Part shown: positions 6,685-64,000 of the stretch, piece by piece
Numbering within the stretch: the first letter of the stretch is position 1
How the letters are laid out: the number at the start of each line of letters is the position of its first letter
Assembly: GCA_001805445.1 (NCBI GenBank)
Contig: MHGF01000025.1
Coordinates: 338 to 64,337 of the forward strand
From: Omnitrophica WOR_2 bacterium GWF2_43_52
GTDB lineage: Bacteria > Omnitrophota > Gorgyraeia > Gygaellales > UBA12090
Length of the DNA: 64,000 bases
Direction of reading: 5' to 3'
Notes under the pieces: model-generated
Databases searched by the model: none
Seen by the model: the letters and a program-made list of their open reading frames with translations, nothing else
Told to the model about the DNA's origin: nothing
Translations under genes and position numbers: made by a program

Positions 6685-9600
6685 ATGAAATCACATTTGC
6701 TGCATAAAACTATTTCCCTATGGGTATCTTTTTGCCTCATTTTTACCCAATTCGCATTTGCCCAAGGGGTAGCCGAACTTAATGTATCAGAGTACTTTAG
6801 GCAAATACATACTAATGTACCTTTTGGTGATAAGCTGAGGCCGCCTCAGCTTAGGTATTTCTCTTATGATACTGTCACAGATGATTATAGGATTATTTTA
6901 GATAAGGGGGCAATAAAAGAGATATCAGAAACCGACGCGGCAGAAAAAGCGAAAACACTTTTAAGTTACTTTCTGATAGGGGTAACCCTCCCCAATGATA
7001 CATTCTGGGTCAACCTGAGGCCCGATGCTCCGGATACTATCATAGACTTTGAATTAGAGAAAACCGATATCGGGAGGATTCTTCTGGAAGCCGACCTGCA
7101 ACTCAAGAAAGATACGGCTCAATGCACCTCACCTCAAACGCCAGATGGTAAGCTCTATTGGGATAAGCTCTATCAGAAGGCAGGTGAGCTCTTTGGCTCT
7201 GAGAATATTACCATTCCTACCTTAACCCGTCCGTGGATAGTACCAGGGGAGATAATCGTAAGAGAAACAGATAATTCCGCCTACATTTACAAGGCAAGCC
7301 TCAAGGTATTGTTAGAAGAAGATTACCTCAAAAGCTCTCAGCTTTCAGCTGTCAGCGTTCAGCAGTATAATTTTAAAGACGAACGGCTAAAAGAGTTGAA
7401 TGAATACTCCACACAGCTTATCAGAGAACTTATTATTCCAAAGCTGACCAGAGAGGTTAATACTTCCCAAAGGTATGCCGCCTTGCGGCAGGTATTCTTT
7501 TCATTAGTGCTTTCTCGATGGTTTAAGGAAAGATTCCGGGGAAAGCAGGGCGCCTATGCGAAGCTAATTGACAGTAAGAATTTAACTAACCTTATTTCGC
7601 AAGAGCAGTGGTCAAAAAATACCTATTTTAATGAATATAAGGAATCATTTCAGCATGGCGAATATAATATAAAGGAAGGTGTAGCCACTCCTTATGGGCA
7701 AACGATACGGAGTTATGTGAGCGGAGGAATTGAATTGACAGGCGCAGCCAGCCCTTTAAATAGTAATAGCTTTAGGGCTGGAGAGGGCCAAAAAATTACT
7801 AACACAATGCTTACTCTGGCAGGAAATGGAAAAAATCCAAGCCTGCAATTTCCTGCGGTCACATCTTCGCCTTTAGGAAAGCCTGAAGAATATAACAATA
7901 AAACAAACAATATAATTAAAGAGATACGTGATGAGGCTTATAAGGTTCACAGTGGCCTCAAAACTATAATAGAAGCATTAAGGCTTAAAATTACTACAGA
8001 GGATAAAGCACATCAAGACATTGAAGCGGCATTGGATAATCTATCAAGTTGGCCGGGTATCTTGCCTGAAAGTACCGATATTAAGGCTATGGCTAAGGAA
8101 ATAGCGAAAGCATTAAGAATATTGAATAAATATTATCTTAGAGATTTAAAAGGGATACTTGAAAAAAGTGGTTTTGAGGAGCAGTTCTCTGCCATGATAC
8201 TGCGTATGGAAAAAATTATTCCCTTAAAAGAGCAGATTCCCGAAGCGCTTGATAACTTTATGGTTAAGTATAAAAGTAGTATTAACCAAGAGCAATTCCA
8301 AAAAGTAGAAGAACTGCGCCTCAAGGAAAGGCAAGAGTTAGAGAATAAGTACGATGATTTTATCCGTTTATGCGCGTATATGGAGGACCTTGTATCGCAG
8401 CTACGAGAACATGCACAGGAACCTGCGAAAGATTCGCTTTATTTTGATTTGGATGAGTGGCTTTCTTTGGAGTTTAGGGCGCAAATAGAAATGATTGAAA
8501 TAGTGGCTGTGGAAGCTGTGAAGGAAATCCATGGTAAGTTTCAGGAAAAAGTAAATGGAATGGAGCGGCAAAGGGAGGAGTTGGAAAATGATATTAAAAA
8601 TATTCACGACAAAATGAGCGCGGGTGTTTTAGAGCTTATTAATAGGTATAACGATTTAGCGCTGCCTTCATTTATGCCAGCGGGTGATGCCGCCGTTGTA
8701 AGCGAAGATGCGTTCAGCCTATTATTTTTAGAAAACAAAGATTTCAACCACTTGACGCAATTTCAATTTCTTTTGCTTTTTGCAAGTTATGCCTTGGGAA
8801 ATTACGAAATTACAAGGGATAAGAATATACAAAAAGCGTTTAAGGAGAAATCTTTTGCTGAAGGGTTAATTACATTATATAAGAGCGTTTATGATCTAGA
8901 TGAAAGGACAAAGAGCTTTGCTAAAGAGCCTTATACTCCAAATTATAATAAAGCTCTTAATCGTATTCTTATTGAAATGCAGAAAAGAAGTGAAAACTTA
9001 GAGAATAAAATCAGCGGTAATTTGGAATATGCCGTTACTAATGATATGCCTTTTGTGAGATTGCCATTTAGCTTAAGACAAGATAAAGATAATGATTTTA
9101 TAAGGAGCAATCTGCCTGAAGCGATAAGCAGGCTTGATAATTATTCCAAAGAGCTTGTAGCAGGATATGGTAAGTCAAGAGATAACAGTATGAGAAATCA
9201 TTTATTTTTATTAAACGTAATAGCTGTCAGCGCGAAGGTTGAGATGGAGTTGTTGATGAGTGAGATTAACGGCAATGCTGAAGCTGCGTCTCCCTTGAGG
9301 CAAGAGAATCAGGAGCAAGATGAGTTAGAAAGGATTAAGAAAGAGTTTCTTCCGCCTCTTGGCGCAGGCAGGCTTACTTTTAAAGATGCAGCAAATAAAA
9401 TTGTTCATGAAATTAGCCAAGTCATAATGGAAAAGATCAATTCTACTGATGAGAACGCAGCATCAAAATTATATAGGGAGAAGCCGTCACCTTACAGTAG
9501 CCTCAAAACGTACCTAGAGGCTTTAGGCTTTACTATTAATGAAAAAGTGGACATGCAGAAGCTGCAAAACGAGATAGAAGCTCTTATCGGGGTAATAAAG

Positions 9601-10407
9601 GATTACGGCTTTGCAGCTAAGCTGGCGGATGAGATTAAAGCTTTGGACACACTTAGTAATAGATTGATTTCACAAGGCGAACAGTTTGCTGAGGAGCTGA
9701 GTCAGTTAAAGGTGACGCCTGCATATTTGGGAAGCCTTATAAAAGAGAGGCCTGTCGCTCTTTATTATCAATTTGCTGAGCTGGTCAAGTTAAATGATCA
9801 AAGCTATCCTGATAATTTTTCTTTGATTCTAGTCCCGTTGCCTCATGACGAGGGTAGTTTTTTAATTCAATTGCAAACACCGCAGCGCAGTATTGTAAAT
9901 ATAAATGTTTATAAAAATGGTGCTATTAAAGTTTCGCGCAATGATATTTTAAACAATTTAGACGTGAGGGTTTTAGCCATGAATATTGCAGAGGCTTTGC
10001 AAAAAGGCGTTGCTTCTTCTGGGATTCAAGGCCAGCCGCAAGGGGATATTGGAGGTATTGACTTTCGTGCGATGAATATATTGACGCAGCCAATGGGAAA
10101 CCTTTCCGGGTTGGATTTTAGTTTACCTGTGTTGAGTAGGGCAACGTTGGAAGACTTTGATATGGAGAAAGAATTAGAGCAGATTAGGAATATGGTAAAA
10201 GGCGGGATAATTCCCTCTGGCCAAAGAGTGAAGGAGTATGTAGCGGCCTGTTTTCAAAAAGGGCAAATGAAGGAAAAGGAGGATGAATTGATGTTTTGTT
10301 TGCTGGAAATCTGCATGTTGCAAGAGGAGCAAGTAGTAGAAAGCTCGGCAGCATTGAGAGAATCAATAGTTATCGTAGATACAGGAAGATACGTTTTAAA
10401 AAAGTAA
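6685..10407 (+). CDS. Large secreted, mostly alpha-helical protein of unknown function (1240 aa)
   Basis: A long ORF with a clear signal peptide and RBS context. No motif I recognise. Confidence 0.6.
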   Translation: MKSHLLHKTISLWVSFCLIFTQFAFAQGVAELNVSEYFRQIHTNVPFGDKLRPPQLRYFSYDTVTDDYRIILDKGAIKEISETDAAEKAKTLLSYFLIGVTLPNDTFWVNLRPDAPDTIIDFELEKTDIGRILLEADLQLKKDTAQCTSPQTPDGKLYWDKLYQKAGELFGSENITIPTLTRPWIVPGEIIVRETDNSAYIYKASLKVLLEEDYLKSSQLSAVSVQQYNFKDERLKELNEYSTQLIRELIIPKLTREVNTSQRYAALRQVFFSLVLSRWFKERFRGKQGAYAKLIDSKNLTNLISQEQWSKNTYFNEYKESFQHGEYNIKEGVATPYGQTIRSYVSGGIELTGAASPLNSNSFRAGEGQKITNTMLTLAGNGKNPSLQFPAVTSSPLGKPEEYNNKTNNIIKEIRDEAYKVHSGLKTIIEALRLKITTEDKAHQDIEAALDNLSSWPGILPESTDIKAMAKEIAKALRILNKYYLRDLKGILEKSGFEEQFSAMILRMEKIIPLKEQIPEALDNFMVKYKSSINQEQFQKVEELRLKERQELENKYDDFIRLCAYMEDLVSQLREHAQEPAKDSLYFDLDEWLSLEFRAQIEMIEIVAVEAVKEIHGKFQEKVNGMERQREELENDIKNIHDKMSAGVLELINRYNDLALPSFMPAGDAAVVSEDAFSLLFLENKDFNHLTQFQFLLLFASYALGNYEITRDKNIQKAFKEKSFAEGLITLYKSVYDLDERTKSFAKEPYTPNYNKALNRILIEMQKRSENLENKISGNLEYAVTNDMPFVRLPFSLRQDKDNDFIRSNLPEAISRLDNYSKELVAGYGKSRDNSMRNHLFLLNVIAVSAKVEMELLMSEINGNAEAASPLRQENQEQDELERIKKEFLPPLGAGRLTFKDAANKIVHEISQVIMEKINSTDENAASKLYREKPSPYSSLKTYLEALGFTINEKVDMQKLQNEIEALIGVIKDYGFAAKLADEIKALDTLSNRLISQGEQFAEELSQLKVTPAYLGSLIKERPVALYYQFAELVKLNDQSYPDNFSLILVPLPHDEGSFLIQLQTPQRSIVNINVYKNGAIKVSRNDILNNLDVRVLAMNIAEALQKGVASSGIQGQPQGDIGGIDFRAMNILTQPMGNLSGLDFSLPVLSRATLEDFDMEKELEQIRNMVKGGIIPSGQRVKEYVAACFQKGQMKEKEDELMFCLLEICMLQEEQVVESSAALRESIVIVDTGRYVLKK

Positions 10408-34982: not shown

Positions 34983-35132
34983 ATGACTATTGATGACCTG
35001 GCGGGGTATTTAAAGGTTAAAAAGCGCACTATTTATGAGTGGCTTAAAAAGAAGAAGATTCCCGCTTCAAAAGTCATTGGGCAGTGGAGGTTCCGTCGGG
35101 AAAGAATAGATGCGTGGCTTGAGAATGAGTAG
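34983..35132 (+). CDS. Small HTH_17 (excisionase/AlpA-like) DNA-binding protein, 49 aa. It is below the ORF-track size cutoff.
   Basis: 'MTIDDLAGYLKVKKRTIYEWLKKKKIPASKVIGQWRFRRERIDAWL' matches the HTH_17 motif. A TTGACA-N17-TAAAAT promoter lies about 45 bp upstream. Confidence 0.6.
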   Translation: MTIDDLAGYLKVKKRTIYEWLKKKKIPASKVIGQWRFRRERIDAWLENE

Positions 35133-35173
35133 TTGTCAGCATACGTGCCTCTTACGAGGGCGAAAGGAGATAG

Positions 35174-38100
35174 ATGTATTTTAAGAAATTAGAGCTCTTG
35201 GGATTTAAATCTTTTGCCGATAAAACAACCTTGTATTTTGAACCGGGAATAACCGCGGTAGTCGGGCCCAATGGATGCGGGAAGTCGAATATTTTTGATG
35301 CTATCCGCTGGGTTTTAGGCGAGCAATCCGTTAAATCTCTGCGCGGCTCTAAAATGGAGGATGTCATTTTTAACGGTACCGAAAGCATTCCCGCGTTAGG
35401 CTACGCGGAGGTTTCGTTAACCTTTGCTAATGAGACGAAGGTTTTGCCTATTGATTATGATGAGGTAACGGTGACCCGCAGGCTTTTCCGCTCCGGAGAA
35501 AGCGAATATTGTATTAATAAGACGCAGGTGCGGCTTAAGGATATAACTGAGCTTTTTTTAGGCACCGGTATTGGCGCGGAGAGTTATTCTTTAATTGAAC
35601 AGGGTAAGATAGATTTGATATTGAGTTCAAAACCCGAAGACAGGCGCTTAGTGTTCGATGAGGCCGCTGGAATCAGTAAGTATAAATCACAGAAAAGGGA
35701 AACGATGCGTAGGCTAGAAGATGCCGAGGCAAATCTTCTTCGTATCAATGATATTATTATTGAGGTTAAACGTCAGATAAACTCTCTTGAGCGCCAGGCG
35801 GCAAAGGCACGGCGCTATAAAGATGTTTTCGAAAAGCTTAAAGGCCTTGAAACTACCTTGGCTGCTTACCAGTTAGGAGAGTATGAAGCGCAAATAGCCC
35901 AGCTTAACCTGCAGCTTGAGCAGTTGATAGCTACGGAGATGCGCGATGCCCAGGCAATTGAAGGGCTGCATAAGGAATGTGCTGAGCGTCAGAAGGAATT
36001 GGATGGGCTGGAAACTCAGTTAAGCGATTTCCGAAGCCGGGCAACGACTGCTGCCAATGCCATTGCCCATGATGTTCAGGAGCTCGGGTTTAATCGCGAA
36101 CGCATAGAGGAACTCAAGAAGCGGATAGCGCTGCTTGCAGGGCAAAGGGAAGAGCTTGCTATAAAAATTACCCAAGACCGCCAGAAGATAGATAATTTTA
36201 AGGCTAACCTTGATGTTTTAATCAGAGAATTGGAGGGAAAAAATGGCTTGGAAGCAAAAGCCAGCAGCGAACTTGAAAACGTTAGCCTTACGATTACCAC
36301 TGCTCAGGCGACACTAAAAGAAGCAAAGACAAAAGTCATAGAATTCGCCGCGCAGGAAGCATTGCTGCATAATCAGGTGAATGATTTTACCAGCCAGTTG
36401 AATCAGGCAATTGCCCGGAAAAAGCGGCTGGATATAGAAAAGCTTAAGAATGAAGAAGAACTTTCGCTCGTCAATCAGAATTTAATGGCCGCGCAGGAGT
36501 TGGAGGATACCTCGTATAGAGCATTCACCAGCCGTAAAGAAGAATGTGAGCAGATAAAAACACGCAATAACCAGTGCCTTCAGGCAAAAGACTCTCTCAG
36601 CGCGCAGCTGCAAAATCATGAAAATGAGCTAGCCGCGCTTTCATCGCAAAAAGAATTTTTATGCAACTTAAAACTGCAGTATGAGAATATTACTGAATCC
36701 TCAAACGCCACGGTCTTGCTTGATGTTTTAAGTGACGAAAAAGTCAGCGGAATTATTATTAAGGTTGAAGAGGTCCAAAAAATTCAAGAGGGCGGCTCCG
36801 GTATTGTTGGGCAGGCAAAGTTTAAGGCCAGAGGAGTTGCTAAGCCTATTTCCTTAGATCCGGAGGAGGTTATCAATAAAATCGAGGCTCTTACTCAGCA
36901 GATACAAACGTTGACGGATTCCCTCGCGCGAAAAAGCCAGGAAATTACAGAATTGGCGCTAAGGCTCGACGGCGCGGAGAAGTCTTTACGCGAAAGCGAA
37001 TTGGAATATAACACCTGTAGAAATAAAAAGGATAATATACGCCAGCATGCTCAAAGGCTTAAAGATGAGTTCGATGTGGTGTGTCTTGAGACGCAGGATA
37101 TCGATGCGCAGGTCAGTAAGCTCACTATAGAAGAAAAGTCTTTCAACGAGAGGCTGGTTACTATCACAGAATTGTCGAAGGCTAATCAGGAAACGATAGA
37201 CCGATGCCTTGAGGAAATAGCCTCTGGCAATAGCGCGAAAGAACGGATATTACTATCGCTTACACAGTTAAAGACGGAGATTTCCGCCTATCAGGAAAAA
37301 GTGGCAGGACAGCAGGAAGCGCGCTCACTCCTTGAAGAGGCTTACGTAAAAAGTAATGCTGATAGAGAAGCTATTTGCAGGGAGGAATCAGATTCCAAGA
37401 AACGTATTCAGGATTTAGAAAGCCAGATCGGCATCCTTGAAGCCGGTATAGAAGATTTCAAAAAGCAGAAAGAACTCTTCGAGGAGGAGATACAAAAAAA
37501 CGCGGCAGCGTTTTCTGAATCAAAGCAGGCACTCTCCTCCGTGCAGGATGCCATTACTCAGAAAAAGGATACCCTTGATGAGATTAAGTCTAAGGTTCAT
37601 GAATTGCAGCTGCAGTTGCAGCAGGTGACGTTTTTACGCAGCGGCATAGAGGAACGTATGCATCAGGTATATAAAATGCAGGCGCCTGAGGTACGCGGCC
37701 ATCTTCAGGAGGATTTAAATATAGAAGAGGTTTCTCAGGAAGTGGAATTGTTGAAACAAAAGATTGAATCTTACGGGCAGGTGAATTTGGTGGCAATTGA
37801 GGAGTTTGATGAGCTTAAACAGCGCTATGATTTTCTTATCAACCAGCAGTCAGATTTATTAAAATCAAAAGAGTCATTGCATGAAGCCATTTTAAAGATA
37901 AACCGTACCACAAAAAAGATATTTTTAGAGACTTTTGAGAAGCTGGTAGTAGAATTTAAGAATTATTTTCGCCTGCTTTTTGGAGGAGGAGATGCCCAGC
38001 TTTTTCTGGTTGACGAGCAGGATGTTTTAGAAAGCGGCATCGAGATTGTCTGCCGTCCTCCGGGCAAGAAGCTGCAGAACGTGCTGCTTCTTTCCGGCGG

Positions 38101-38431
38101 GGAAAAGTCAATGTCAGCAAGCGCTCTTATGTTTGCTATTTTTAAGGTCAAGCCTTCTCCGTTTTGCGTGCTGGATGAGATTGATGCTGCTTTAGATGAG
38201 GCAAACGTGGATAGGTTTAGCCGCATGCTCGTTGATTTTACCGCGCAGTCGCAGTTTATCGTTATTACCCATAATAAGAAAACTATCGCCAATGCCAATA
38301 TCATGTACGGGATTACTATGGAGAAGGCGGGGATTTCAAAGATTGTTTCGGTAAAATTAGCGGAAAACACAGAAAAGAAAAAACTTGTTAGCTCGCTCCA
38401 AGAAGAACAAAAGGTTCCTGAGGCGGTGTAA
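35174..38431 (+). CDS. smc: Chromosome partition protein SMC
   Basis: N-terminal Walker A 'GPNGCGKSN', a long coiled-coil with a hinge, and a C-terminal 'LSGGEKS' plus Walker B. Confidence 0.9.
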   Translation: MYFKKLELLGFKSFADKTTLYFEPGITAVVGPNGCGKSNIFDAIRWVLGEQSVKSLRGSKMEDVIFNGTESIPALGYAEVSLTFANETKVLPIDYDEVTVTRRLFRSGESEYCINKTQVRLKDITELFLGTGIGAESYSLIEQGKIDLILSSKPEDRRLVFDEAAGISKYKSQKRETMRRLEDAEANLLRINDIIIEVKRQINSLERQAAKARRYKDVFEKLKGLETTLAAYQLGEYEAQIAQLNLQLEQLIATEMRDAQAIEGLHKECAERQKELDGLETQLSDFRSRATTAANAIAHDVQELGFNRERIEELKKRIALLAGQREELAIKITQDRQKIDNFKANLDVLIRELEGKNGLEAKASSELENVSLTITTAQATLKEAKTKVIEFAAQEALLHNQVNDFTSQLNQAIARKKRLDIEKLKNEEELSLVNQNLMAAQELEDTSYRAFTSRKEECEQIKTRNNQCLQAKDSLSAQLQNHENELAALSSQKEFLCNLKLQYENITESSNATVLLDVLSDEKVSGIIIKVEEVQKIQEGGSGIVGQAKFKARGVAKPISLDPEEVINKIEALTQQIQTLTDSLARKSQEITELALRLDGAEKSLRESELEYNTCRNKKDNIRQHAQRLKDEFDVVCLETQDIDAQVSKLTIEEKSFNERLVTITELSKANQETIDRCLEEIASGNSAKERILLSLTQLKTEISAYQEKVAGQQEARSLLEEAYVKSNADREAICREESDSKKRIQDLESQIGILEAGIEDFKKQKELFEEEIQKNAAAFSESKQALSSVQDAITQKKDTLDEIKSKVHELQLQLQQVTFLRSGIEERMHQVYKMQAPEVRGHLQEDLNIEEVSQEVELLKQKIESYGQVNLVAIEEFDELKQRYDFLINQQSDLLKSKESLHEAILKINRTTKKIFLETFEKLVVEFKNYFRLLFGGGDAQLFLVDEQDVLESGIEIVCRPPGKKLQNVLLLSGGEKSMSASALMFAIFKVKPSPFCVLDEIDAALDEANVDRFSRMLVDFTAQSQFIVITHNKKTIANANIMYGITMEKAGISKIVSVKLAENTEKKKLVSSLQEEQKVPEAV

Positions 38432-55857: not shown

Positions 55858-56031
55858 CCCAGGAAAAGCGGCCGTCAAAATTATTATCCCGGATTTTACT
55901 CCGACGCCAGAAAGCCCCGCTATTTATAGCGGGGATGAATGGCTTTCTGGGTCGGAGTTCCGACCTCTGAAGGAGCGTCGGAACTATTCAAGAAAGAAGC
56001 CCCGTGATTTATCACGGGGAGTCTACACTGT

Positions 56032-57948
56032 ATGTTTAAGTCTCTTAAACTATACACTCACCAAACAATTAATCTTGAAGAACTGACGGCTGCCTTAATC
56101 GCCTTTGGATATCAAAGGCAGGAACAGGTTTCCCAGGAGGGCGATTTCTCGCGGCGGGGAGAAATCCTTGATGTCTATCCTGCTACCTTTGATTGTCCCA
56201 TCCGTATTGCTCTCGATATCAATACGATAGAATCGATTACCAGTATTGACCTTATCCATAACCGGGTTATCTTTAGCCATAGCCTGGTTATTATTCTGCC
56301 TAAGCATAAGTCCTACCGCAGCCAGAATACAGGGTTTACCCAGGAATCGCCGCTTAACCTTTTTGTAGAATTAAAAAAAGGCGATCTTCTGGTGCATATC
56401 CAACACGGCATCGGCAGGTATATGGGCATTGAAAAAGTCAAGACCTTAAAAGCCACCAGCGACCATTTTGTTCTTGAGTACGCGCATAAGGAAAAATTAT
56501 TTGTTCCGGTAACCGAGGCGCACCGAATCCAGAAATTTATCGGTTTAAAAGCGCATGTTCCTAAACTGAACCGTCTGGGAACTAATGAGTGGGAGGCCGT
56601 CAAGCGCAGAGTTCAAAAAGGGATTAAGACCGTAGCCGTGGGGCTCCTTCGCCGTCAGGCAGAACGCGCGGTCACCCTAGGCTTTTCCTTTAGTAAAGAT
56701 ACCGACTGGCAGGAGAGGTTTGAAAAGACTTTTCCTTATCAGGAAACTCCGGACCAGATAAAAGCGGCGCTTGAGGTGAAAAATGATATGGAGTCGCCGC
56801 ATCCTATGGACAGGCTTTTATGCGGCGATGTAGGCTACGGCAAGACTGAGGTGGCGTTACGCGCCGCGTTTAAGGCGGTCATGGATAATAAACAGGTTGC
56901 CGTTTTAGTGCCTACTACTATTTTGGCAGAGCAGCATTATCAGAATTTTATTCGCCGTTTAAAAGATTTTCCGGTGAATGTGCAAATGCTTTCCCGCTTT
57001 CGAAGCGATGCCCAGCAGAAAAAGATTGTTGAAGAGACTAAAAAAGGAAACGTGGATATTATTATCGGAACTCACCGCTTGCTTTCTGACGACCTTGCTT
57101 TTAAGGATTTAGGGCTCTTGATTATTGATGAGGAACAGCGTTTCGGGGTTGCGGCAAAAGAAAAGTTAAAATCTATGAAGCTGGCGGTAGATGTTTTGAC
57201 CCTTACGGCAACTCCGATCCCGCGCACGCTCTATATGGGGCTCATGGGGCTTAAAGATATTTCAAGTATCAACACCCCTCCGCAAAATCGTATACCAATT
57301 ACCACCTATGTGGTAGAATATGATGATGATATCATCAGCCATGCCCTTACCAAGGAATTAAGCCGTAAAGGGCAGGTATTCTTTGTGCATAATCAGATTT
57401 ATGATATCGAGGAGATGGGCCAGAGGATTAAAAAGCTGGCTACGAGAAATGCTATCGTTACCTGCGCTCATGGCCAGATGCCGGAAAAAGAACTTGAAGC
57501 GATTATGGTAGGATTCCTGGAGCAAAAAATTGATTGTCTGGTTTCAACGACCATTATTGCTTCAGGCATAGATGTTCCCATGGCAAATACCTTACTCGTT
57601 AATAATGCCCATCTCTTCGGGCTTTCGGATTTACATCAGCTGCGCGGCAGAGTGGGACGGTTTGACCGTAAGGCATACGCGTATTTTTTTATCCCTAAGG
57701 ATGAGATCCTGTCGAGCGAGTCCCGCAGGCGTCTTGAAGCGCTCAAGGATTATTCTGAGCTTGGCGCGGGCTTTAAGATTGCCATGGAAGACCTGGAAAT
57801 CCGGGGCGCGGGCAATCTCTTAGGCTATACCCAGCACGGCTTTATTCAGGCTGTGGGATTTGATTTATATTGCCGTCTACTCAAAGAGATGGTAAATGTA
57901 TTAAAGAAAGGTAATGATACTCGTGTTGATGAAGACAATGAGGAATAA
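56032..57948 (+). CDS. mfd: Truncated transcription-repair coupling factor (Mfd). Only D3, the RNAP-interacting domain and the translocase are present; D1a/D2/D1b and D7 are missing.
   Basis: CarD/TRCF RNAP-interacting domain ('GDLLVHIQHGIGRYMGIEKV'), helicase motifs ('GDVGYGKTEVALRAA', 'DEEQRFG') and a 'TRG' motif. It is 638 aa, against about 1150 aa for full-length Mfd. Confidence 0.75.
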   Translation: MFKSLKLYTHQTINLEELTAALIAFGYQRQEQVSQEGDFSRRGEILDVYPATFDCPIRIALDINTIESITSIDLIHNRVIFSHSLVIILPKHKSYRSQNTGFTQESPLNLFVELKKGDLLVHIQHGIGRYMGIEKVKTLKATSDHFVLEYAHKEKLFVPVTEAHRIQKFIGLKAHVPKLNRLGTNEWEAVKRRVQKGIKTVAVGLLRRQAERAVTLGFSFSKDTDWQERFEKTFPYQETPDQIKAALEVKNDMESPHPMDRLLCGDVGYGKTEVALRAAFKAVMDNKQVAVLVPTTILAEQHYQNFIRRLKDFPVNVQMLSRFRSDAQQKKIVEETKKGNVDIIIGTHRLLSDDLAFKDLGLLIIDEEQRFGVAAKEKLKSMKLAVDVLTLTATPIPRTLYMGLMGLKDISSINTPPQNRIPITTYVVEYDDDIISHALTKELSRKGQVFFVHNQIYDIEEMGQRIKKLATRNAIVTCAHGQMPEKELEAIMVGFLEQKIDCLVSTTIIASGIDVPMANTLLVNNAHLFGLSDLHQLRGRVGRFDRKAYAYFFIPKDEILSSESRRRLEALKDYSELGAGFKIAMEDLEIRGAGNLLGYTQHGFIQAVGFDLYCRLLKEMVNVLKKGNDTRVDEDNEE

Positions 57949-61163: not shown

Positions 61164-61646
61164 ATGTTTACAAAAAATAAGAAAGGTTTTACCTTAGTTG
61201 AAATTATGATTGTGGTGGCAATCATAGCGCTTTTGGCGGCAATATCAATTCCCGGGCTTTTACGTTCGCGTATGAATGCCAATGAGTCAAATGCTATCGG
61301 TAGTGTAAAGACATTAAGCACTGGTGCTGAGACGTTTAGGTCAGCTCAGGCTGCTCCACTGTATCCTGCTGATATAGCAGTTGACCTTGTTGGTGCTGTT
61401 CCTCCGTATGTCACGGGTTTTGTTGGCGCAGCAGATCCTGTTACAAAAAGCGGCTATACCTTTAGTATAGGACGAAATACAGCGAATACCTATACTGTTA
61501 GGGCAAATCCAACAACTGTAGGAACAACAGGAAACCGTGCCTTTTGCGTTGATGAAACAGGCCTTATGTATGCAACAACGGCAGCGGCAGGCTTTGTAGA
61601 TACTGCAGCATGTATTGGACAGGGAGGTGCTACACAATTACAGTAG
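61164..61646 (+). CDS. Type IV (major) pilin
   Basis: N-terminal 'KKGFTLVEIMIVVAIIALLAAI', the class III signal with Glu5. Confidence 0.85.
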   Translation: MFTKNKKGFTLVEIMIVVAIIALLAAISIPGLLRSRMNANESNAIGSVKTLSTGAETFRSAQAAPLYPADIAVDLVGAVPPYVTGFVGAADPVTKSGYTFSIGRNTANTYTVRANPTTVGTTGNRAFCVDETGLMYATTAAAGFVDTAACIGQGGATQLQ

Positions 61647-61669
61647 AAATAAAAACTTTTTTGGAAAAA

Positions 61670-61706
61670 GACAAATGGCGATGGTATTTCCATCGCCATT
61701 TGTCTT
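61670..61706 (+). terminator. 15-bp stem hairpin after the pilin gene
   Basis: gacaaatggcgatgg tattt ccatcgccatttgtc. Confidence 0.5.
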
Positions 61707-61877
61707 CAGAAATGTTGCTTAAAAAATAGATGAAACATAAGAGATGAGACTGATTTTTGAATGGGGATTAACTATTGATCTATCTAACCTGTGGTTTATT
61801 AAAAAAATAATGAGATGATGCAGGAATGATGACTGCCTTAGATTAGAACTTTCCTAAGAGATTTTCCGCTCTTTAAA

Positions 61878-62315
61878 ATGAAGATAGCCAAAGGGTTCAC
61901 GCTCGTAGAAATAATGCTGGTGGTTGCTCTTATTGCCTTATTAGCAGGGCTTGCTGTTCCTCAAGTTTTGCGCTCTAGGCTTCTTGCACATGAAGCTGCG
62001 GCAATAGCGGGCATGAAGGCAATCCATAAGGGATGCCAGATGTATTACAGCGCTAATGATAATACGTATCCTCTCACCGGTTTGACGGATTTAGCTTCTG
62101 CTAGTCCGGCATATATAGATTCTGTATTAGGTTCAGGAACAAAGCAGGGCTATCAGTTTACGTTTACCTTTGTTGATGCTGACCATTATTTTGTGAACGC
62201 GGATCCGGTTACCCCCGGAGTAAGCGGTAATAGATATTTTTATATAGATCAGGAGGGCGCGATACATAGTTCAACAACCGGCCAGGCAACGGCAGCGGAC
62301 CCTCTCGTGCAATGA
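61878..62315 (+). CDS. Type IV pilin
   Basis: 'KGFTLVEIMLVVALIALLAG' prepilin N-terminus. Confidence 0.8.
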   Translation: MKIAKGFTLVEIMLVVALIALLAGLAVPQVLRSRLLAHEAAAIAGMKAIHKGCQMYYSANDNTYPLTGLTDLASASPAYIDSVLGSGTKQGYQFTFTFVDADHYFVNADPVTPGVSGNRYFYIDQEGAIHSSTTGQATAADPLVQ

Positions 62316-62338
62316 TTTAGGAATCTCTAGGAAAGCTG

Positions 62339-62764
62339 GTGGCAGGCGCTATGGCAAGAAAACTTAATAAAGGTTTCACCCTTCCGGAATTACTGCTGGC
62401 TTTTTCGGTTATGGCTCTTGTCTTGGCAGGGGCATTGAGCCTTTTCATCAGCTGTATCTTTCTTAATGAAACTAACCGGAATCTGAGCGTGGCAACCGGG
62501 CATGCCCAGCTCGTTTTAGAGGAGATAAAAAATACTAATTTCGTAAGTATGCAGTCGGGGGCTATAAATCCAGAGACAAATTGGGATTGGGATAACGCCG
62601 CGATAAGCGCGAAAGGCTTGATTGTTCTTAATACTGAGTCAATCAGCACGCAGGCAGTATGGACAGGTACCGACCGGCTTAACGTCAATGTTACGGTGAG
62701 TTGGAAAGACCGCGGGCTAAGGGATAGGTCAACATCCTTAGAAACACTCATCACTGAGCCATGA
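62339..62764 (+). CDS. Minor pilin or pseudopilin (PilV/GspI-like)
   Basis: 'KGFTLPELLLAFSVMALVLAG' N-terminus. Confidence 0.65.
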   Translation: MAGAMARKLNKGFTLPELLLAFSVMALVLAGALSLFISCIFLNETNRNLSVATGHAQLVLEEIKNTNFVSMQSGAINPETNWDWDNAAISAKGLIVLNTESISTQAVWTGTDRLNVNVTVSWKDRGLRDRSTSLETLITEP

Positions 62765-63321
62765 AAAACCCATTAAGCCATATATTTTTTTTAAAAGGCA
62801 AGAGGATACCAAAGCCTTCAGGACTTACCTTGGTTGAAATTTTGATTGCGACTGCCCTGTTCCTCCTGCTGATCACAGGTGTTTTCGCGGTGCTTAATGT
62901 CGCGGACATGAGCTGGCATTCTGATATGGGGCTGGTAGACTTACAGCAGGAGGCCCGGCACATTATGGATGGTATGACCCGGGAAATCCGGCAGGCTGAC
63001 CCGTCTAGAGACGTTACCATTGGCGCCGGCGGCAATAGCCTCCAGTTTTATATTGCTAGTTATACTGACCCTATAAGCTATACTTTGATTAACGGCCAGC
63101 TTATTCGCCAGCATCCAAATGGCGTAAGTAAGGTATTGGGAAATGATGTCAGCAGTTTAGGCTTTTGCTGGCTGCAATCTAACGGTGCCTGTCAGGCTGC
63201 CAGAAATAATAGCTATACCTTGCAGGTGAGTTTACAGGCAACTAAGACCGTCAGGCAGAGGGTAGTGGTTTTTCCTTCTGCCGGGCCTTTGATAGAGGAG
63301 GTTAAGCTAAGAAATGAATAA
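62761..63321 (+). CDS. Minor pilin (PilW/GspJ-like)
   Basis: 'SGLTLVEILIATALFLLLITGVF' N-terminus. Confidence 0.6.
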   Translation: MKNPLSHIFFLKGKRIPKPSGLTLVEILIATALFLLLITGVFAVLNVADMSWHSDMGLVDLQQEARHIMDGMTREIRQADPSRDVTIGAGGNSLQFYIASYTDPISYTLINGQLIRQHPNGVSKVLGNDVSSLGFCWLQSNGACQAARNNSYTLQVSLQATKTVRQRVVVFPSAGPLIEEVKLRNE

Positions 63322-64000
63322 TAGAGGAGCAGCACTCATTATTGCTTTTGCGGTAATATTGGTGTTGGCTATCTTAGGCAGCGCGATACTTTCGCGCAGT
63401 ATCTCCGAAAACAACATAGCTAAGCGATATCAAGAGTCAACCCAGGCCTTTTGGCTTGCCGAGAGCGGGATTAACAGGGCACTCTATGAGTTGCGTAACA
63501 ATTATGACTTGAACTCCGTCAGCGCGACCGCCCTTGGCCAGGGTGGGTATCAGGTAAGTATAGCCCAAAGCGGGCAGAATCGTATCGTTACCGCGACCGG
63601 TTATATCCCTTTTACCGGCCAGGCCCGCGCCAGCCGTATCATAGAAGCGACCATGTCTAAAACTATTCCTCCTGATTTTTATGAGAATGCCATTTATTCC
63701 GGAGGAGACATAGATTTAAACGGCAACGCCTATCAGGTAAACGGAAAGGTACGCTACGCGGATGAGCTTGACTATCAGCACGACTATATAACCGGGACAG
63801 AAACCCAGGATCCCTCAATTAGCCCTTTAGCCCGGTTTGATTTCACGCAGATGCGCGCTTTGAGTGTGGCACAGCAGAACCTTTATGTTGTAAGCGGCAA
63901 CAAACTTATCAATCAGGCAACAGGATCCGAGGCATTTCCAAGTTCCTTCTGGTTTTCTCCGCCGACTGACATTAATGACGGGACAACCGGAACTCCCAAC
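63314..64000 (+). CDS. PilX-like pilus assembly protein (partial; the 3' end lies beyond the window)
   Basis: 'MNNRGAALIIAFAVILVLAILGSAIL...QAFWLAESGINRALYEL' matches the PilX N-terminal domain. The ATG at 63314 overlaps the upstream stop (ATGAATAA). Confidence 0.6.
   Translation, partial: MNNRGAALIIAFAVILVLAILGSAILSRSISENNIAKRYQESTQAFWLAESGINRALYELRNNYDLNSVSATALGQGGYQVSIAQSGQNRIVTATGYIPFTGQARASRIIEATMSKTIPPDFYENAIYSGGDIDLNGNAYQVNGKVRYADELDYQHDYITGTETQDPSISPLARFDFTQMRALSVAQQNLYVVSGNKLINQATGSEAFPSSFWFSPPTDINDGTTGTPN

Follow-up and report, generated by a model that had tools for sequence, protein, structure and literature searches.

Which domains of the bacterial transcription-repair coupling factor (TRCF) Mfd can be dispensed with? 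Models based on Escherichia coli assign essential regulatory roles to domain 7 (D7) and to domains 1 to 3 (D1-D3), namely masking of the UvrA site, restraint of the motor, and wrapping of DNA for processivity. A gene that lacks most of these parts lies in a 64,000-nucleotide stretch of DNA (positions 338 to 64,337 of contig MHGF01000025.1, hereafter the window) from Omnitrophica WOR_2 bacterium GWF2_43_52, a metagenome-assembled genome (GCA_001805445.1; 2.47 Mb, 97% complete) placed in the class Velamenicoccia and order Gygaellales, with c__Koll11 and o__GIF10 as its GTDB labels. The gene, a short mfd, occupies positions 56032..57948 of the forward strand and stands in the list of open reading frames (ORFs) with 638 codons plus stop. 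Its product, at 638 amino acids (aa) about 55% of the length of E. coli Mfd, is 100% identical to a public entry (P0001) named 'transcription-repair coupling factor [Omnitrophica WOR_2 bacterium GWF2_43_52]', and proteins of this kind are annotated as plain 'transcription-repair coupling factor'. Here we describe its domain content and its spread among the Omnitrophota, and weigh whether such a protein could still link stalled RNA polymerase (RNAP) to nucleotide excision repair (NER).

The identity of the protein is supported by several lines of comparison. It scores 853.3 bits against TIGR00580, the NCBIfam equivalog model for mfd with a trusted cutoff of 800, and 624.7 bits against NF007966 (PRK10689), the model for full-length Mfd of the enterobacterial type, which is below that model's cutoff of 1329. 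Four Pfam domains are recognised (PF17757 UvrB_inter, PF02559 CarD_TRCF_RID, DEAD at residues 259-399, and Helicase_C at residues 438-544); PF03461, the TRCF domain corresponding to D7, has no match in the short protein and does match the full-length relatives P0122, P0168, and P0225. Against the Mfd of E. coli K-12 (1148 aa, from NC_000913.3; its residues are marked Ec below), BLASTP yields two collinear segments, pairing residues 4-92 with Ec 127-215 (E 7e-10) and residues 111-634 with Ec 474-996, the second a 524-residue stretch with 46% identity and one gap. A MAFFT alignment of 191 sequences agrees on these boundaries, placing residues 9-90 against Ec 132-213 and residues 106-627 against Ec 469-991. 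RecG was tried as an alternative identity and rejected: TIGR00643 gives 372.6 bits, far under its cutoff of 659.4, the motor alone aligns, and the N-terminus consists of D2 and the RNAP-interacting domain (RID). By its sequence we regard the protein as an ortholog of Mfd whose architecture (D2-RID-translocase) is new and reduced, since the TIGR00580 match, the RID, the motor, and the TRG motif are present and the full UvrB-homology module (BHM) and D7 are not.

The order of the domains can be followed along the forward strand. D2, the UvrB-like UvrA-interaction domain, sits at the extreme N-terminus (aa 5-92; 56044..56307; PF17757, E 2e-18). In place of D1b and D3 comes a variable linker (aa 93-110; 56308..56361), delimited by conservation, by nonsynonymous divergence (pN), by the AlphaFold2 (AF2) model, and by MAFFT, which sets the deletion between Ec 213 and Ec 469. 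The RID, or D4 (aa 111-172, equivalent to Ec 474-535; 56362..56547), is matched by PF02559 over aa 114-170 (E 9e-18) and matches the PDB fragments 6yhz and 3mlq. The relay helix (aa 185-214, equivalent to Ec 548-577; 56584..56673) was placed from the BLASTP offset of 363, the AF2 model, and published boundaries (PMC7864632). The motor comprises D5, translocation domain 1 (aa 217-417, equivalent to Ec 580-780; 56680..57282; PF00270 DEAD, E 8.6e-25), and D6, translocation domain 2 (aa 418-628; 57283..57915; PF00271, E 1.5e-19), which carries the TRG motif and the hook helices. A short, variable, acidic tail (aa 629-638; 57916..57945), unconserved and free of PF03461, stands in place of D7.

Within this frame the catalytic signatures are readily located: motif I (Walker A) reads GDVGYGKT at aa 265-272, motif II DEEQ at 366, motif III TATP at 392, and motif VI QLRGRVGR at 536. 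The TRG residues defined in E. coli Mfd (PMC7864632), Ec R929, R953, and Q963, correspond to R567, R591, and Q601; across the family of short homologs the last two are invariant, and R567 is kept in at least 90%. By these alignments the helicase, TRG, and RID elements are intact and conserved. What is absent amounts to three separate deletions, of D1a (Ec 1-126), of D1b and D3 (Ec ~214-468), and of D7 (Ec ~997-1148). From the BHM, with its D1a-D2-D1b order, the D2 portion alone aligns, neither BLASTP nor MAFFT finding anything for Ec 1-126 or 214-468. At the other end the alignable part stops at Ec 991-996 and four more residues precede the stop codon, whereas E. coli Mfd continues for about 152 residues as D7. 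The linker is the least conserved internal segment, and the tail has a mean identity to our protein of 0.04 across the family.

Much of this had been anticipated in a first-pass annotation of the gene, which described a shortened Mfd made of RID and translocase, with motif I at about residue 265 against about 630 in E. coli and an end just after the TRG/hook region without D7. These points hold: the RID is found by PF02559 and the motor by its motifs and its identity to Ec 474-996, motif I starts at 265 against 628, and the stop codon at about Ec 996 leaves the protein about 152 residues short. The same annotation took D2 to be absent, which is mistaken, as residues 5-92 are D2 by their Pfam match, by their alignment to Ec 127-215, and by their match to the D2 structure 4DFC.

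An AF2 model built from a 40-sequence family alignment (mean pLDDT 74.9, pTM 0.56 for the whole) predicts confident, separate folds for D2, the RID, and the motor, which a low-confidence linker connects. The pLDDT is about 85-89 for D2 (residues 5-88), about 82-87 for the RID (119-168), and mostly 80-93 for the RecA-like domains, and the relay helix of E. coli (548-577) has its counterpart in a long helix predicted at 186-214. Residues 93-112, which take the place of D1b and D3, and the C-terminal tail fall below 50; for the former this is consistent with a flexible tether. A Foldseek search of the PDB returned Mfd structures first (6ac8, 2eyq, 6x26, and 9n11, with E down to 4e-58), and RecG next.

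The short form is a property of a lineage. The best 120 homologs, at 60-77% identity, are all 571-665 aa long, carry the same four Pfam domains, and, where named, come without exception from Omnitrophica/Omnitrophota. In a protein search against 1.84 billion representatives clustered at 50% identity, the best 150 matches were examined; almost all are 989-1332 aa long and align in two stretches, D2 and D4-D6, and the short form recurs among them only in P0121 (642 aa) and P0123 (640 aa), the other short entries being P0215, a partial Chloroflexi sequence, and the pair P0193/P0274. A scan of genome contigs with this protein as query gave five loci, one of them from Omnitrophota. In a neighbour-joining tree of the shared RID-motor region, calculated without bootstrap and so indicative only, all of the 42 short proteins sampled form one clade that contains no full-length protein and is nested among full-length Mfds. 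The sequences and this indicative tree point to a short architecture that is real, ancient, of single origin, and lineage-wide in Omnitrophota. No literature linking Omnitrophota and Mfd was found.

Gene order around mfd is known for relatives at two further distances. A 61%-identical relative keeps the order S16-YajC-SecDF-mfd-SurA-PdxA-KsgA, with gaps of 35 and 25 nucleotides (nt) flanking mfd, and a 54%-identical one (L012, GCA_053991395.1) has another neighbourhood, in which the start of the short mfd overlaps an upstream pseudouridine-synthase gene. A few genes upstream in the same locus (L012, 274-6012) are genes for a UvrD-like helicase and a PDDEXK_1 nuclease, an AddAB-like pair, and the short mfd there lies directly upstream of a ClpB-HrcA-GrpE-DnaK-DnaJ cluster, which in the window is about 42 kb from mfd.

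A separate observation concerns P0193 (914 aa; L011, 2487-5231, Logan ERR2191545), which keeps the D1-D3 region including D2, the RID, and the motor and has no TRCF/D7 domain. Its gene is followed by convergent genes, its cluster mate P0274 has 923 aa, and each is complete within its contig; by sequence the two would be a second, independent-looking kind of natural D7-less Mfd.

Whether the N-terminal domain of the Omnitrophota protein still serves repair depends on what has been conserved in it. The D2 construct crystallised together with UvrA, 93 residues long, is matched by residues 5-92 over positions 8-92 of 4DFC_A (E 1.7e-6), and UvrB domain 2 (3FPN_B) is matched as well; the PDB scores are alike, at 31 bits each for Mfd D2 and Thermus UvrB, and parsimony favours a retained Mfd D2 rather than a recaptured UvrB domain 2. 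The mean top-residue frequency over the 120-member family is 0.66 for D2, 0.71 for the RID, and 0.49 for the linker. Against a 77%-identical ortholog, to which synonymous sites are already saturated, so that domains are compared by pN and column conservation, pN is 0.17 for D2, 0.21 for the RID, and 0.26 for the linker. These values indicate that D2 is under purifying selection, although D7, its sole known intramolecular partner, is absent.

Our comparison of UvrA contacts rests on Ec R165, R181, and F185. The first two have been described as 'critical for binding' UvrA and are buried against D7 in repressed E. coli Mfd (PMC7385628; PMC3025350). The equivalent of R165 (R42) is arginine in 91% and that of R181 (R58) in 100% of the 120 aligned family sequences, and the equivalents of Ec G166, D170, and P179 are likewise retained. 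Because the short family has no D7, conservation of the two arginines cannot be due to a D2-D7 clamp and would suggest contact with UvrA or with some new partner. Four other positions, F53, W81, H83, and I87, which are variable in full-length Mfd, show little or no variation in the short family; they may form a new conserved surface or mini-core, or may stabilise a D2 that is no longer packed against D1a and D1b.

Possible repair partners were sought in published gene tables. Neither uvr genes nor excision nor DNA repair is mentioned in the main texts of the Omnitrophota genomics papers searched, and the supplementary gene tables are informative. The portion used here, Source Data for Figs 3-5 of Seymour et al. 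2023 (PMC10066038), covers six Omnitrophota genomes. Genomes 58 and 231 have K03701, K03702, and K03703 (uvrA, uvrB, and uvrC) alongside K03723 (mfd), and among four further genomes with TIGR00580 (mfd), TIGR00630 (uvrA) is listed in all four and TIGR00631 (uvrB) in three; TIGR00643 (recG) is separately encoded in each of these four (PMC10066038). NER is thus present in the phylum. For genome 58 (order B26-G9, ~94% complete), covered here by its gene and domain lists, the tables include K03723, PF02559, and PF17757, and PF03461 is missing from them (PMC10066038); an mfd unaccompanied by any D7 domain is what loss of the domain predicts. With D2 present and conserved like the RID, the equivalents of R165 and R181 kept, and UvrABC encoded in the phylum, the earlier suggestion that this protein cannot recruit UvrA loses its footing.

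We read the short protein, with a rough probability of 0.62, as a functional, lineage-wide minimal TRCF of Omnitrophota that would dock UvrA, be constitutively unmasked, and probably be derepressed. Its working parts would be D2 for UvrA docking, a flexible linker of about 15-20 residues, D4 for binding the RNAP beta-protrusion, the relay helix, and the RecG-like double-stranded DNA translocase of D5/D6. The RID would fix the protein onto a stalled elongation complex, the motor would move along the upstream duplex and drive RNAP forward or off, and the tethered D2 would bring in UvrA(2)B through a binding face that, without D7, would never be masked. Derepressed behaviour is to be expected since both the D1a/D1b/D3 'clamp' and D7 are missing. 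In E. coli, delta-D7, delta-BHM, and D2-D7 interface point mutants are hyperactive in ATPase and translocation and give UvrA constant access (PMC3025350; PMC3488230; PMC13453472), and Thermus Mfd has an open clamp and is constitutively derepressed, translocating robustly without RNAP (PMC13453472). The short Mfd would be expected to behave similarly, with DNA-stimulated ATPase, RNAP-free translocation, and constitutive UvrA access. Its processivity would probably be lower, and premature UvrA binding would have to be tolerated, or controlled by abundance or by a new contact of D2.

Three points weigh against this proposal. The first lies in D2 itself: Ec F185, the third member of the UvrA triad and phenylalanine in 71% of full-length Mfds, is D, N, or E in the short family (D62 here), Q200, present in 100% of full-length proteins, has become G or N, S202 has become P, V, or A, and R193 is K or other residues. 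Since these positions are altered, the UvrA interface appears from the alignment to be at least remodelled. The second concerns loading, which in E. coli involves large movements of D1-D3 and leaves Mfd wrapped round DNA, with D1-D3 and D7 both taking part (PMC7864632); this wrapping is believed to make the enzyme highly processive and to postpone recruitment of UvrA until the complex is committed (PMC7864632). A protein without D1-D3 and D7 may load or move quite differently from what we propose. The third is that uvr genes were not found in the 64-kb window, and the tables that list uvrABC cover other Omnitrophota genomes.

The same altered positions form the case for the strongest competing reading, in which D2 has been repurposed and the protein acts as an RNAP-release, anti-backtracking, or roadblock-clearing translocase, with D2 providing a new in-cis regulatory contact to the motor or RID in place of the lost clamp, or binding a new partner. 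Changes at near-invariant positions of full-length Mfd (F185, Q200, S202, and R193) would fit such a shift, as would the newly invariant F53, W81, H83, and I87 if they mark a new surface or mini-core, and repair-independent roles of Mfd are well documented (PMC13453472). However, the pair of arginines with the most direct link to UvrA binding is kept with no D7 to account for it, UvrABC is found in the phylum, and the newly invariant residues may just stabilise an isolated D2. Moreover, the known Mfds that are uncoupled from NER lost D2 together with D1 (PMC3488230), and here D2 alone survived the deletions around it. Repurposing of D2 is therefore possible in our judgement, and on balance doubtful. 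We consider it unlikely that the short Mfd is differently regulated, with a new D2 surface that binds the motor or the RID in cis, or else RNAP or DNA, and thereby gates UvrA access and ATPase; if true, this would be an independent answer to the problem of autoinhibition, in the smallest known self-regulating transcription-repair coupling factor.

A split or trans-complemented Mfd, in which D1a/D1b, D3, and/or D7 are encoded by separate genes and join the core, is very improbable. Room for it exists, in that the inspection covered the 64 kb of the window and some 10 kb more of this 2.47-Mb genome, together with neighbourhoods of roughly 20 kb in relatives. However, tblastn with E. coli Mfd against the window matches this gene alone, no TRCF, UvrB-like, or other Mfd-related ORF stands among the precomputed Pfam calls over the whole contig stretch, and the tables for genome 58 list its mfd and two of the domains and PF03461 nowhere. 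Three excisions would be needed, leaving D1a and D1b, which form one fold that D2 normally interrupts, without D2, and in every aligned family sequence a short variable linker joins D2 straight to the RID. The first-pass annotation had also raised a split gene; the occurrence of the short form in 120 of 120 best homologs and in two neighbourhoods, with tight gene spacing, speaks against it.

The boundaries of the gene are equally well constrained. Its start codon is fixed by the first eight residues, MFKSLKLY, which are about 90% conserved in the family. Upstream, 174 nt separate the gene from secDF and contain stop codons in each of the three frames; downstream, stops crowd the mfd frame and a SurA-like gene follows within some 20 nt. 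Both a frameshifted extension and a downstream remnant of D7 were considered and rejected, the former for the stop codons that fill each of the three frames of both flanks and the latter for those in the mfd frame and for the closeness of the SurA-like gene. This disposes of the in-frame upstream extension that had been suggested earlier, and the assembly artefact also suggested is countered by the identical protein on at least 24 contigs from several assemblies. A frameshift, mis-assembly, or decaying fragment of a full-length mfd, for which the short length and nothing else speaks, deserves practically no credence given the stops on both flanks, the recurrence of the protein in different assemblies, the conserved start, the retained helicase and TRG motifs, the TIGR00580 score over the trusted cutoff, and a pN of 0.13-0.26 against a synonymous divergence (pS) of 0.72-0.86 across the gene in comparison with its 77%-identical ortholog (L003).

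The secDF-mfd spacer has features of its own. Three strong hairpins lie at 55898-56024, with an RNA fold of -71.1 kcal/mol against -41.0 +/- 3.8 for shuffled sequences (z = -7.9). A 24-nt hairpin is present twice, at 55912-55935 and at 55997-56020, with stems that differ in a compensatory way between the copies (CCCCGCTAT/ATAGCGGGG versus CCCCGTGAT/ATCACGGGG). The window has no further copy of the motif, no Rfam family matches, and the hairpins are not conserved in L003, whose 60-nt spacer has a different hairpin. Candidate roles are a terminator or an attenuator of secDF; alternatively, a small repeat element may have been inserted here.

Other genes in the window include recA/recX, clpB, hrcA-grpE-dnaK-dnaJ, secDF, an SMC-like gene, a his operon, and genes for type IV pili. 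A 1240-aa ORF with no recorded Pfam match (6685-10407, forward strand) is flanked by an HflX-like GTPase gene and by a MerR/HSP20/ClpB heat-shock cluster. At 34983-38431 (forward strand) a 49-aa HTH_17 (excisionase-like) ORF stands directly upstream of a gene for a 1085-aa SMC_N/AAA_21 protein, an unusual pairing that might be a module for defence or for chromosome maintenance. At 61164-64000 (forward strand) N_methyl (pseudopilin/type IV pilin) genes are clustered, and genes for PilM, PilO, and a secretin follow just past the end of the window; host attachment by Omnitrophota has been discussed in terms of type IV pili or Tad-like systems.

Returning to the question posed at the outset, a large clade of an uncultivated bacterial phylum, with Omnitrophota as its only named members, appears to have kept exactly those modules of Mfd to which a catalytic or partner-binding function has been assigned (D2, the RID, and the motor), and so offers a natural 'minimal TRCF' and a natural experiment on the domains that Mfd can do without, of interest mainly to the field of transcription-coupled repair. 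It opens the questions of whether a tethered D2 is enough for coupling to UvrA, whether an unmasked D2 is tolerated in cells, and how processive a motor can be that does not encircle DNA. Its size of 638 aa also makes it an attractive compact construct for structural work.

Among known systems, the short form has in common with canonical Mfd (E. coli; PDB 2EYQ, 6X26) the RID, the relay helix, the D5/D6 SF2 translocase, the TRG motif, the hook, and the fold signature of D2. Unlike canonical Mfd, it has no D2-D7 clamp and nothing of the UvrB-homology module beyond D2, and unlike E. coli Mfd it has no domains that could swing around or encircle DNA during loading (PMC7864632). With RecG it shares a homologous SF2 motor with TRG (TIGR00643, 373 bits; 1GM5, E 6e-74), and differs from it in lacking the wedge domain and in having the RID and D2. 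The absent or open autoinhibitory D2-D7 contact is a likeness to the engineered delta-D7, delta-BHM, D2-AAA, and D7-AAA forms of E. coli Mfd and to the naturally derepressed Mfd of Thermus thermophilus (PMC3025350; PMC3488230; PMC13453472); those, however, are truncations made in the laboratory or a full-length protein whose clamp is dynamic, whereas the short form reflects evolutionary loss of N- and C-terminal regulators with D2 kept. According to a 2026 study of Thermus Mfd, autoinhibition is not a universal trait, though D7 and the hook were still said to be more highly conserved than the N-terminal region (PMC13453472). Natural parallels are the shortened Mfds of Buchnera aphidicola, Wigglesworthia glossinidia, and the Arabidopsis chloroplast, which likewise kept the RID and motor (PMC3488230; PMC13453472). 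These forms lost the whole BHM including D2, kept D7, and occur without UvrA, UvrB, and UvrC (PMC3488230; PMC13453472); the Omnitrophota form is the reverse.

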